From a virus: a DNA stretch of 64,000 nucleotides. Under the pieces are notes generated by a model that saw nothing but the letters and a program-made list of their open reading frames with translations, was not told where the DNA came from and made no database searches. The stretch covers positions 89,293 through 153,292 of the IMG/VR virus record IMGVR_UViG_3300044658_000058, one strand, 5' to 3'. Within the stretch, counting starts at the first letter, position 1. Every line of letters starts with the position of its first letter. Below, in pieces: positions 20,593-32,520 of this stretch. Made by a program: the position numbers and the translations under genes.

Positions 20593-20814
20593 TGGTCCGA
20601 GTGGACCGATTCGAACAGCCGACCCCTAAGTTTTCATCTGGGCTTTCATCCGGTTTGGTTTCTGTAGCGAACATATTACCCTATCGGAATCCCTGTAGAT
20701 TTCATTCGTCATTGTCGCTCTGTTCGTACCAGCCGTCGCCAGTCATCCCTTCGCTATCGTCCGAACTAATTTCTCCTACCAGCCTTAGTGCTCTACCAAC
20801 TGAGCTACACTCGG
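20593..20814 (-). ncRNA. tRNA-like RNA with 153-nt insertion in place of the anticodon loop
   Basis: CCGAGTG-TA-GCTC-AGTTGGTA-GAGC-A-CTAAG-[153 nt]-CTTAG-GGGTC-GGCTG-TTCGAAT-CGGTC-CACTCGG-A-CCA; own promoter. Confidence 0.85.
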
Positions 20815-29663: not shown

Positions 29664-29867
29664 TCAGAAGCTCCAATAATGTGTCGGCTGACCATTATCC
29701 GGATGACCATACCAGTCAGCCGTTCCATCCTCTTTCAGAACACATTTCTTGGGTTTGGGATTTTCCTTCGACTTCATGATCAGAACGAAGTTGAACAAAT
29801 CGAATTTTTCGTCGATTGGTATCCAGTGCGGTTCATGCTTGGGATACGTTTTGGAACCAACTTTCAT
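29664..29867 (-). CDS. hypothetical protein (W.P.....PTHYW)
   Basis: DUF551-like termini. Confidence 0.6.
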   Translation of the reverse strand: MKVGSKTYPKHEPHWIPIDEKFDLFNFVLIMKSKENPKPKKCVLKEDGTADWYGHPDNGQPTHYWSF

Positions 29868-30238
29868 AGCACCGTCTTTTCTTCCGAGCCTTCATAATGC
29901 GCAATGGCCCGATCAAATATGTTCATCACGTCGGTATGCGTGGTGGTTCGATGATCATTGTAGACGGACATGAAATTCATGCCTGTGAGAACGGAGAAAG
30001 TATTGCTGATATCCCTGAAAATTTCGACCGTTCCGGGCTTCGGATCGCCATGTTCATCAACACCACCAAGTTCATGGAAAGCACGATGCAGAGCGCCGGA
30101 CATGCACCATTTACAGGCTTGCGGGGAATTGAGTGGCGTCATGCGGCCATATTCATCCGTGGCCATATAGAACTTGGTCCAGTTTTCCGGATTGGCGATG
30201 ACGGCTTTGCCAGTTTTAAGAATGTCAATCGGTTTCAT
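29864..30238 (-). CDS. DUF6197-like protein
   Basis: PENWTK..A.D..ACKWCMSGA..YND..TTH.DV...FD.AI. Confidence 0.75.
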   Translation of the reverse strand: MKPIDILKTGKAVIANPENWTKFYMATDEYGRMTPLNSPQACKWCMSGALHRAFHELGGVDEHGDPKPGTVEIFRDISNTFSVLTGMNFMSVYNDHRTTTHTDVMNIFDRAIAHYEGSEEKTVL

Positions 30239-30246
30239 TGATTATC

Positions 30247-30633
30247 CTAAGCCTCATTGGTTTTTCCTTCCTGTTCACGGGCCTTCACGATGGCCTTGTC
30301 GAGTGCTTCGATCACTTCGGAATGCTGGCGTCCCGGCAGATCATTCCAAACGGCGACCGAGCCGTAAAAATCTCCGAAAACGGATGCCAGAGTTGCACGG
30401 GCCTTTGAATAGGCTTGATCCCATTCGTCCAAGGAAAGGCCATGGCGGTTGATGGTCTTCATGATGCCACCAACAAGGCACCAGCGACACGCAAGGGAGT
30501 CCAGAGCGCCAACCGGTTCACCATTGGCGTCTCTGCCGTTCGTGCCCTGTCCCCAATGATCGGGTTCAGACAAAAGCTCACGGGTTTCCGAGAGGACTTG
30601 TGAAGTCTTGATCATGGCATTCCCTTCGATCAC
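30247..30633 (-). CDS. DUF6197-like protein
   Basis: PDHWGQG..GRD..ACRWCLVGG..WND.PGR.HSEVI..LDKAI. Confidence 0.75.
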   Translation of the reverse strand: MIEGNAMIKTSQVLSETRELLSEPDHWGQGTNGRDANGEPVGALDSLACRWCLVGGIMKTINRHGLSLDEWDQAYSKARATLASVFGDFYGSVAVWNDLPGRQHSEVIEALDKAIVKAREQEGKTNEA

Positions 30634-30950
30634 AGTTCGATGGCCTTATCAATCAGTGCGATGACTTCGGAATGTTTGCGTTCAGGAAGGTCATTCCATT
30701 CAATGAGCGGCCCGGAATCGTCGTTATAATTTGACCCTTTGAGCGCCAAAAGCAGGCGATCACGAATCTGTCGATATTCGCCGTGATTATCACTCACCTT
30801 GCTGATGCCGCCGACAAGGCACCAACAAACACCGCTTTGAATGGATGCAGATGACCAGCCCGTACTATCCCGAGCAAAACAGCCCTTGGTCCAGTGTTCC
30901 GGGTTGGAAAAAAGCTTTTTCAGCTTTTCGAGTGATCTTTTGACATCCAT
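30630..30950 (-). CDS. DUF6197-like protein
   Basis: PEHWTKG..ARD..CWCLVGG..WND.PERKHSEVI..IDKAI; start moved to ATG 30950. Confidence 0.75.
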   Translation of the reverse strand: MDVKRSLEKLKKLFSNPEHWTKGCFARDSTGWSSASIQSGVCWCLVGGISKVSDNHGEYRQIRDRLLLALKGSNYNDDSGPLIEWNDLPERKHSEVIALIDKAIEL

Positions 30951-30954
30951 GATT

Positions 30955-31290
30955 TTATTCCGTCGGTTCCGGGTAGCGTTCGGGATGTGCCTTGAAAAGT
31001 TCGATGGCCTTGTCAAACACCGCCATGACATCTTCATGTTTGCGGTTATGTGCATCGTTCCAATGCACGATATCCCGGTGACCCAAGGCATCATAGACCG
31101 CCAAGCGAGCCGAATAGCTGGTGAAGTCGGACACTCTTTCCAAAGCACCGTTCATGCAGAATTTGCAGGCTTTTTCGCCAAGTAGTGTGGCGGTATGGCC
31201 ATTGGCATCACGGGCGTTTGAGCCTTGTGTCCACGTGTCCGGCGTGTTGATAAGCGCCTTGGCCTTGGTCAGAATTTCGAGCGTATTCAA
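30955..31290 (-). CDS. DUF6197-like protein
   Basis: PDTWTQG..ARD..ACKFCMNGA..WND..RKHEDV..VFDKAI. Confidence 0.75.
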   Translation of the reverse strand: MNTLEILTKAKALINTPDTWTQGSNARDANGHTATLLGEKACKFCMNGALERVSDFTSYSARLAVYDALGHRDIVHWNDAHNRKHEDVMAVFDKAIELFKAHPERYPEPTE

Positions 31291-31523
31291 GCGATTTCCT
31301 CCATCAGAGCCTTGGCGGCGACATAGGCACAGTCGGCCATATGCTGAATGTTTCCATCATGCCAATCGGACTGGAAACAATATTCGCATTTCCGGAACAC
31401 GTTGCGGCCCGTTTCATCGTCCTGAATGCCACGTTCTACCACGGTCTGACAGACCAGTTTCAGCTTTTTCGTTTCTTCATGGTTCAAAAGTGTCGATGCC
31501 ATTTTCATTCCCTCGCTTTTCAA
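31287..31523 (-). CDS. small Zn-finger-like hypothetical protein
   Basis: CEYC...H..DC. Confidence 0.65.
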   Translation of the reverse strand: MKSEGMKMASTLLNHEETKKLKLVCQTVVERGIQDDETGRNVFRKCEYCFQSDWHDGNIQHMADCAYVAAKALMEEIA

Positions 31524-31530
31524 GAATTTC

Positions 31531-31692
31531 GGGGCGTGGGGAGGAGTCGAACCTTGCCACTAACGAACACCACGGAAAGGGTTAACGACCTTTCTTGCAT
31601 CCGTTGCATAGACCTCTTGGGTACTCACTGGCTTCCGGAAGGGTAATGATCACTCCCCGACTTTCCACCGGCTTTCGCCTCACTATCACGCC
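31531..31692 (-). ncRNA. tRNA-like structured RNA (about 160 nt)
   Basis: Terminal stem GGCGTG/CACGCC, T-arm AGG-TTCGACT-CCT, GGC-GAAA-GCC, GAAAGG/CCTTTC; starts 6 nt after a promoter. Confidence 0.65.
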
Positions 31693-31698
31693 AACCAC

Positions 31699-31727
31699 AA
31701 GATAGGTGACGATCTGTAGAATGTCAA
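31699..31727 (-). promoter_or_regulatory. sigma70-type promoter
   Basis: TTGACA-17nt-TATCTT. Confidence 0.7.
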
Positions 31728-31737
31728 TAGTTAGATT

Positions 31738-31965
31738 CTATGTACCATGATATTCTAGCGAATAATAATATCGGATCACGAAATAGCCGGGATCGAATAT
31801 GCTCTTGGAATCCCACATGTGCCATTTCTCACGAACACGAACCCGCTCTAGCCATGCCCAACGCCGCTTGTCTTCAAGGAACACAGGACGCCATGCAAAC
31901 CACCAATCGGGTTTCTCGGGTATCCAGTCCCAAAGACGATGCCACCAATCCATTCTGAATTGCAT
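31738..31965 (-). CDS. Trp-rich hypothetical protein (WFAWRPV..W.WLE.V)
   Basis: Motif recurrent in phage hypotheticals; AGGA RBS. Confidence 0.7.
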   Translation of the reverse strand: MQFRMDWWHRLWDWIPEKPDWWFAWRPVFLEDKRRWAWLERVRVREKWHMWDSKSIFDPGYFVIRYYYSLEYHGT

Positions 31966-31986
31966 GATGTTCCTAATTAAAACTTT

Positions 31987-32030
31987 GCCGGGCTCACAGC
32001 TTCGCCGGGCTCACAGCTTCGCCGGGCTCA
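31987..32030. repeat. 17-bp tandem repeat, about 2.6 copies
   Basis: GCCGGGCTCACAGCTTC x2 plus GCCGGGCTCA. Confidence 0.9.
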
Positions 32031-32214
32031 TTCCATGACCACGAAATCCCGTGATCGGCTTCGGTTCATTGCGCCCATTGCGATAGACAAAATGCCCGTA
32101 CCAAGGGCGAGAATCGCACAGGCTCACGCTGGCTTCATTGCCCATGCCATAATGTTTCATTCCCCAATACCAGCGGGGAAGTTTAGAATCTTTTGGGGCT
32201 TTGAAGCACATCAT
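32011..32214 (-). CDS. hypothetical protein
   Basis: ORF ending in the tandem repeat. Confidence 0.55.
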   Translation of the reverse strand: MMCFKAPKDSKLPRWYWGMKHYGMGNEASVSLCDSRPWYGHFVYRNGRNEPKPITGFRGHGMSPAKL

Positions 32215-32217
32215 GAT

Positions 32218-32520
32218 TTAATGTTCGGTGTTATAGCGACTTTTGAACCGTGAGCCCATCGGGGTTGTTCCACAACCCATCAGAAACTCATTCCGTGTCG
32301 GTCGTGGCGAGGCGTCCACAAACTTTCCGCCACGATAAATTTGCAGCGGAATATACGGATGAAAAATTTCCAAGCCGGATTTGTAGCGAACATGTGTTCC
32401 AATAATCCGGTCTTCATGATCGAAATGTTCCGTTCGTTCTGCACCTTCGTTGATGCTTCGGAACAGTTCCAAAAGGTCGTCGGCATCATAGAAAGAGTTA
32501 TCGTTCATAGCTTCGGTCAT
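32218..32520 (-). CDS. hypothetical protein
   Basis: GAGG RBS. Confidence 0.7.
   Translation of the reverse strand: MTEAMNDNSFYDADDLLELFRSINEGAERTEHFDHEDRIIGTHVRYKSGLEIFHPYIPLQIYRGGKFVDASPRPTRNEFLMGCGTTPMGSRFKSRYNTEH

Follow-up and report, generated by a model that had tools for sequence, protein, structure and literature searches.

A conserved structured RNA with a partly tRNA-like 3' end ahead of a DUF6197 operon in an uncultured T4-like phage

Does a gap between two protein genes of a T4-like phage encode a structured RNA whose ends resemble those of a tRNA, and, if so, is this RNA released as a separate molecule or retained as the leader of the operon behind it? The gap lies within the final 64 kb of a 153-kb IMG/VR record; this 64-kb stretch, analysed as a whole, is hereafter referred to as the window. 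Baseplate proteins of gp5, gp6 and gp7 type, together with a large terminase, identify the source as an uncultured T4-like myovirus, for which the closest cultured relative is the Ochrobactrum phage vB_OspM_OC (43.5% by baseplate protein). From the letters alone, the original prediction had proposed an RNA of about 160 nt, transcribed from its own promoter, that ends in a T-loop arm and an acceptor-like strand and encloses unrelated stems. The analyses below indicate that this observation was largely right and that the RNA is very probably real.

Promoter, RNA and downstream genes in three related phages

The element is encoded on the minus strand, from window position 31692 to 31533 (~160 nt), behind an upstream gene that ends at 31738. 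As proposed, a sigma-70-like promoter is predicted immediately ahead of it, scoring 10/12 and representing the sole minus-strand promoter call within 2 kb. The sequence GGCGTG (31692-31687) begins 7 nt past the -10 box, at the predicted transcription start, and its complement CACGCC is found at 31538-31533. The features of the locus are as follows:

31699-31727, minus strand: predicted sigma-70-type early promoter, with TTGACA at 31727-31722, a 17-nt spacer and TATCTT at 31704-31699
31533-31692, minus strand: structured RNA, from first to last base of its terminal helix (160 nt), as given by the homologue and the consensus fold
31503-31532, minus strand: A/U-rich linker with a conserved GAAAUU, then the ribosome-binding site GAGGGA (31514-31509), homologous in a sister phage
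31287-31502, minus strand: open reading frame behind GAGGGA for a 71-aa Cys/His protein, the first gene of the operon, starting at 31502
29864-31290, minus strand: four tandem DUF6197 genes in the same transcription unit as the Cys/His gene

Anchoring a homologue search on the flanking proteins failed because these are orphans; for the Cys/His protein, a search of 5.8 billion proteins returned no homologue beyond this phage clade, and the only other contig carrying it was 100% identical in DNA. Homologues were instead sought through the baseplate wedge protein, identifying a sister phage (95% amino-acid identity, three contigs) and a 77% relative. BLAST of the locus against these records matched query positions 274-450 at 71% identity, a stretch that starts with the first base of GGCGTG and ends shortly after CACGCC. 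The three IMG/VR contigs of the sister phage carry identical copies and hence amount to one distinct homologue, which is 66% identical to the window RNA over 162 aligned columns. The RNA is single-copy in each genome, and the family consists of two known sequences; as both derive from uncultured phages, the RNA is for now a candidate. A covariance model built for the family (R1) detected nothing in the complete 77% relative, in 41 other T4-like or DUF6197-bearing records, or in the T4 tRNA region. Exact scans with the conserved blocks returned the sister phage and chance matches from viral collections, and chance matches (coding-like sequence or a non-tRNA site) from metagenome and genome collections. 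Among cultured phages, neither blastn with the RNA nor tblastn with the downstream protein gave anything past 23-nt matches to the T-loop region, while the upstream protein led to an unrelated high-GC contig lacking the RNA, and none of ten DUF6197 loci in other phages had an upstream tRNA-like element. Also identified in these scans was an intergenic-looking stretch of two further contigs (L114:2024-2039, IMG/VR 3300037195_001010; L115:4385-4400, 3300035205_000287) that contains TAGTGGCAAGGTTCGATACCTTG, a perfect 5-bp T arm (CAAGG/CCTTG), and has 16 nt in common with the invariant block of the RNA; neither an ARAGORN tRNA nor an R1 match was obtained there.

Comparison of gene order around the locus revealed rearrangement among the three phages:

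Window phage: upstream gene, promoter, RNA, Cys/His gene, four DUF6197 genes
Sister phage (95%): homologue of the upstream gene, two extra genes, promoter, RNA, three DUF6197 genes, Cys/His homologue
77% relative: Cys/His homologue, five DUF6197 genes; the RNA is absent, and the cluster directly adjoins the gene before it

The Cys/His gene comes first in two of the three phages and follows three DUF6197 genes in the sister phage, and the number of DUF6197 copies is four, six and five in the window phage, the sister phage and the 77% relative, respectively (window 29864-31502 compared with L106:1666-2976 and L117). Homology between the window and sister phages continues through the linker up to the ribosome-binding site, though the next gene differs. 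Judged by these gene orders, the unit of promoter, RNA and ribosome-binding site holds its place at the head of the cluster while the surrounding genes move, and it is dispensable in a relative. Since the 77% relative has the same genes without the RNA, the latter is not simply part of the expression signals of those genes. The sister-phage promoter (L099:1440-1500) retains an invariant TTGACA at -35; its aligned -10, TTAAAT, is missing the A at the second position, and a perfect TATAAT is positioned 8 nt after the -35, upstream of the aligned -10. Transcription in the sister phage may consequently start ~20 nt upstream of the terminal helix.

A strand-specific structure conserved between two phages

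Alignment of the two sequences yielded an RNAalifold consensus of 42 base pairs, all of which are kept in both phages, with 9 of the 42 changed on both sides. These double changes comprise one in the terminal helix (C:G to U:A), one in hairpin H4 and seven in a long hairpin, compared with 4.0 +/- 1.7 expected from column shuffles, of which 3 out of 300 reached nine. The consensus energy of -31.7 kcal/mol corresponds to z = -4.35, with none of 300 column shuffles as low, for a structure derived from the same two sequences on which it was tested. On the reverse strand the consensus reaches -22.8 kcal/mol, ~9 kcal/mol worse, and sliding the 3' partners by one to three columns reduces pairing to 40-49% and double changes to none or one. 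Folded singly, the two sequences are no more stable than dinucleotide shuffles (z = 0.02 and -0.18). The structural elements, ordered from the 5' end of the RNA, are:

31687-31692, minus strand: 5' strand of terminal helix P1, GGCGUG (acceptor-like); its third pair is C:G here and U:A in the homologue
31670-31679, minus strand: small hairpin GGC-GAAA-GCC, which competes with a GUGAGG:CCUCC pairing
31641-31658, minus strand: hairpin H4, GGGGAGU-GAUC-AUUACCC, six pairs with one G:C to A:U double change
31619-31636, minus strand: hairpin H5, four pairs with two one-sided changes that keep pairing; weakly supported
31610-31620, minus strand: invariant junction CCAAGAGGUCU, identical in both phages and within a near-invariant block of ~26 nt
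31556-31613, minus strand: long hairpin (helices 6 and 7), 17 pairs with seven two-sided changes
31542-31554, minus strand: T-loop-like hairpin AGG-UUCGACU-CCU, 5+7 nt before the 3' end, in tRNA register
31536-31563, minus strand: invariant 3' block of 28 nt, UUAGUGGCAAGGUUCGACUCCUCCCCAC, the longest identical run in the alignment
31533-31538, minus strand: 3' strand of terminal helix P1, CACGCC

Terminal helix P1 forms with a pair probability of 0.92-1.0 in both sequences. The long hairpin is the least conserved part of the RNA in sequence and contributes most of the two-sided changes, such that the internal stems anticipated by the original prediction are present and one of them covaries. 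Conversely, the 28-nt run of UUAGUGGCAAGGUUCGACUCCUCCCCAC was not reached in any of 20000 permutations (p < 5e-5). The GNRA hairpin noted at the outset is present in the window copy (GGC-GAAA-GCC); in the homologue the corresponding hairpin is GGU-CAAA-GCU, where the pairs survive only as wobbles and the loop, CAAA, shows that a GNRA loop is not conserved. Together, the double changes, the consensus energy and the strand preference show a conserved strand-specific structure beyond chance.

The conserved unit is also non-coding. A GTG-initiated frame of 38 codons is open in the window phage (31698-31582), so a small protein might be imagined; this frame begins upstream of the predicted transcription start, and because the homologue has stops in all three frames and the alignment a 4-nt indel, the element does not encode a protein, a reading we regard as essentially excluded.

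tRNA likeness, known RNA families and T4 species 1 RNA

How tRNA-like is this structure? Counted as in a tRNA, its 3' end comprises a UUCGACU T loop, CCUCC as the 3' strand of the T stem, CCACGCC as the 3' strand of the acceptor, and a discriminator base, after which CCA is absent. The T-loop sequence occurs within GGTTCGACTCC (31553-31543, minus strand), and the other T-loop-like 11-mers of the window are all inside reading frames. The T stem consists of 3 pairs only (A-G-G/C-C-U), with A.C and C.C mismatches at 50-64 and 49-65 that belong to a run of three consecutive mismatches at the junction (7.66, 49.65 and 50.64). Although a T arm can be imposed on the consensus fold for only 1.35 kcal/mol, this stem has an ensemble probability of 0.01-0.09. 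Furthermore, CCUCC pairs at least as well with an invariant 5' GUGAGG; as the bases of the T stem and of the GUGAGG:CCUCC pairing are all invariant, covariation cannot choose between these pairings. Of the T-loop arm and acceptor end originally described, the loop, the register and CACGCC are therefore upheld, whereas the arm as a stable helix is doubtful.

The significance of this arrangement depends on how it is assessed. A loose-geometry scan of the whole genome, which required a T loop, three or more T-stem pairs, and a closing stem (six or more pairs) within 40-320 nt, returned 15 matches against 4.5 +/- 3.2 in Markov shuffles; with several chance configurations per shuffled genome, geometry alone is not evidence. 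Given P1, however, a T-loop motif in register (+/-1) arose in 0.14% of interior shuffles (p ~0.001), a value conditional on P1 being accepted independently, from its thermodynamics, its compensatory change and its position at the predicted start.

Searches against known families were uniformly negative. With Rfam 15, nothing in the whole window reached the gathering score, and at E up to 10 the locus gave only a chance rteR match over the promoter; the homologue produced a sub-threshold match to tRNA-Sec (16.8 bits, E 1.1). ARAGORN called neither a tRNA nor a tmRNA at the locus, with introns allowed or not, consistent with the reported lack of a D arm, an anticodon arm and an exact CCA. As a control, the same intron settings recovered four phage tRNAs, a permuted tmRNA and an intron-like tRNA-Phe at 20.6 kb; without introns, no tRNA was called in the 64-kb window. 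The RNA accordingly belongs to no curated RNA family, riboswitches included. With a T stem of three pairs, no Rfam tRNA match for the window copy and only a sub-threshold one for the homologue, any mimicry of tRNA is putative and weaker than the original prediction had it.

Particular relatives of tRNA were considered individually. With tmRNA and canonical tRNA the RNA has in common an acceptor-like helix at its ends and a T-loop consensus close to the 3' end; unlike these, it has no tag frame, D arm, anticodon arm or CCA, and its 3-70 pair, C:G in the window copy and U:A in the homologue, is not the G3:U70 of tmRNA. YrlA RNAs are tRNA-mimicking bacterial Y RNAs bound by Ro/Rsr (PMC4201824). 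They too are non-coding, modular in build and equipped with a T-arm-like element, and phages encode some of them. In YrlA, however, the tRNA-like part is reportedly internal and it is the RNA ends that make up the Ro-binding stem, whereas here the ends make up the acceptor-like stem. No Rfam YrlA match was obtained, and the phage genome has no TROVE/Ro gene, although control genomes do match; nor was a gene for a CCA-adding enzyme found in it.

A closer parallel is provided by species 1 RNA of T4 (rnaC). No function is known to have been assigned since the 1970s to species 1 and 2 RNAs of T4, whose ends are tRNA-like. In rnaC, CCGGG-UUCGAAU-CCCGG is followed directly by a 7-nt strand complementary to the 5' end with two U.U mismatches, and two unrelated hairpins are located between the ends. 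Both RNAs thus derive from T4-like phages, measure about 140-160 nt and have paired 5' and 3' ends; both carry a T loop (UUCGAAU in T4, UUCGACU here) with 5 nt of T stem and 7 nt of acceptor to the 3' end; and both combine an imperfect acceptor stem with unrelated hairpins in place of the D and anticodon arms. They differ in that rnaC has a full 5-bp T stem and is encoded at the end of a tRNA cluster, whereas the RNA described here has a 3-bp T stem and its own promoter, lies ~70 kb from the tRNA cluster of the phage and has protein genes directly after it. Location in a tRNA operon is hence not shared, and no homology of sequence or structure was detected, with R1 scoring <= 5 bits across the T4 tRNA region. 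The comparison with T4 species 1 RNA is nevertheless apt with respect to the arrangement of acceptor strand, T arm and internal hairpins, although the T stem here is shorter and predicted to be weak.

The original prediction had further placed the RNA in a set with a second element at 20.6 kb. The latter proved to be a tRNA-Phe(GAA), as called by ARAGORN with introns (window 20593-20814, minus strand; G000 109885-110106). Its tRNA body is full and its CCA encoded, 146 nt are inserted in its anticodon loop, and it shares no sequence with the 31.5-kb RNA. In favour of a set, a third element of the same design as the 31.5-kb RNA was found in the tRNA cluster of the phage, 5 nt after tRNA-Met (G000:C1:49446-49529, plus strand; locus L122:645-732). 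Its 84 nt are closed by a perfect 7-bp stem (CUCCGUU/AACGGAG), which is in tRNA register with a UUCAAUU loop on a T stem of 3 pairs; neither ARAGORN nor Rfam calls it a tRNA. The stretch aligned over it is ~92% identical in the sister phage, and the element is absent beside the tRNA-Met of the 77% relative. We consider it a candidate counterpart of T4 species 1 RNA.

Released RNA or operon leader

The reading that we tentatively favour, while rating it as not quite probable, is that of an RNA of T4 species 1 type, capped by a tRNA minihelix, which forms the 5' part of an early operon transcript and is probably cut off. Transcription from its own early sigma-70-type promoter would make the RNA the first part of the transcript for the Cys/His protein and DUF6197. 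P1 would close a multi-hairpin body containing the 17-pair covarying hairpin, and the 28-nt invariant 3' side would place the T-loop sequence in exact tRNA register with P1, such that an acceptor-like stem stacked on a short T arm forms a cap that carries unrelated internal hairpins, as in the rnaC design. Host enzymes that process tRNA or mRNA ends would then cut after the terminal helix, candidates being RNase Z, after the discriminator base, and RNase E, in the GAAAUU linker. RNase E has a loose preference for R-N-W-U-U, which GAAAUU fits, and this sequence after P1 is kept in both phages. Such cleavage would separate a stable small RNA from the downstream mRNA. Folding of the T loop, the cut itself, any addition of CCA and a binding target for the released RNA are all inferred. 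This reading is supported by the conservation, covariation and T-loop register described above, by the occurrence of the same cap in T4 rnaC and of the same design in the 84-nt element, and by the fixed place of the module among rearranged genes. Counting against it are the size of the family (two distinct sequences), the weak 3-pair T stem, the sub-threshold Rfam match, the frequency of such geometry by chance, the absence of a CCA or terminator, single folds at the level of shuffles, and the possibility that the -10 of the homologue is ~20 nt upstream.

Nearly as likely as the favoured reading, and in our view a possibility of real weight, is a 5' leader that acts only in cis and is never cut from the mRNA, either as a riboswitch-like aptamer closed by P1 or as an element that sequesters the 5' end to influence stability or translation of whichever gene comes next, with the T loop serving as a tertiary motif. 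No intrinsic terminator was called across 30500-32500, and hence none within 1 kb of the RNA, so that, as transcribed, the element is a ~190-nt 5' leader of the Cys-protein/DUF6197 operon, located between promoter and ribosome-binding site, with ~15-25 nt from the end of P1 to the ribosome-binding site of the first gene. That homology extends to this site ahead of a different gene suggests that promoter, leader and ribosome-binding site act as one cassette, and aptamers typically combine a P1-closed multi-stem junction with covarying stems and invariant bases at the junction, the pattern seen here. In addition, when downstream sequence is included, an alternative GUGG...CCAC hairpin, extending the T hairpin, competes with P1 in both phages. 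Conversely, no riboswitch or leader family of Rfam matched at E up to 10, an attenuator terminator is lacking, and the ribosome-binding site is predicted to pair with different partners in the two phages, such that no conserved expression platform or conserved sequestration of this site is seen. By eye, CsrA-type GGA motifs and pairing against the ribosome-binding site were neither enriched nor conserved. A cis-acting role also sits uneasily with the 77% relative, in which the same gene cluster does without the element, and leaves the register of the T loop with P1 unexplained.

A broader extension of the minihelix-cap reading is that T4-like phages harbour an unrecognised class of RNAs with such caps and unrelated internal domains, matured by host tRNA processing and acting in trans, e.g. 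as decoys or sponges for host factors that bind or cleave tRNA. T4 species 1 would be its founding member, and the 31.5-kb RNA, the 84-nt element and the tRNA-Phe with its insert would be three members in this phage. We consider a class of this scope rather doubtful. More modestly, the recurrence of the cap in a second, unrelated RNA that heads an early accessory operon in a distant T4-like phage suggests that it may be a reusable handle for processing or stability, for which the RNA offers a compact test construct; if it is a cis-acting leader instead, it would represent a new structured regulatory element for the uncharacterised DUF6197 family. Either would add to the poorly catalogued non-coding RNAs of phages.

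It is unlikely that the element is what is left of a decaying tRNA or tRNA-like gene, or a promoter cassette with a passenger, conserved through recent divergence and lacking function at the RNA level. Such an origin would account for two members in one narrow clade, for absence from the next relative, and for the tRNA likeness of both ends, in the first 10 nt (the 7-nt stem strand, UA and G) and in the last 25 nt. In T4-like phages, hyperplastic regions are also known to shuffle cassettes running from promoter to ribosome-binding site, termed PeSLs (PMC4122927), and the locus resembles these in having a conserved unit from the -35 to the ribosome-binding site in a hyperplastic region flanked by rearranged small genes (PMC4122927, PMC2839356). 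Divergence to 66% identity is, however, far from recent, and it has left every predicted pair intact, nine of them by double change, along with an invariant block of 28 nt. PeSLs, furthermore, are short repeats present in many copies with the stem-loop upstream of the promoter, whereas this is a single-copy, covarying RNA of 160 nt between the -10 and the ribosome-binding site; the extended -35 motif is not significantly repeated either (13 matches against 8.2 +/- 2.9 expected).

Finally, integrating phages often bear a tRNA fragment from T loop to 3' end at their attachment site, and only the 3' strand side is fully tRNA-like here, so the T-loop hairpin sequence in question, GGUUCGACU, could in principle have been copied with the acceptor strand from a host tRNA gene; this is essentially excluded, since the 21-mer GGTTCGANTCCTCCCCACGCC occurs once in the genomes of 185,579 species, at a non-tRNA site, the phage is a T4-like myovirus of lytic type, and the 5' strand covaries with the 3' strand.

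The phage's own tmRNA, as called by ARAGORN, is a permuted, two-piece molecule (G000:C1:66376-66720) with the tag peptide DNDNFVPLAVAA. Because permuted tmRNAs occur typically in alphaproteobacteria, along with some other groups, this gene may provide a hint at the host.
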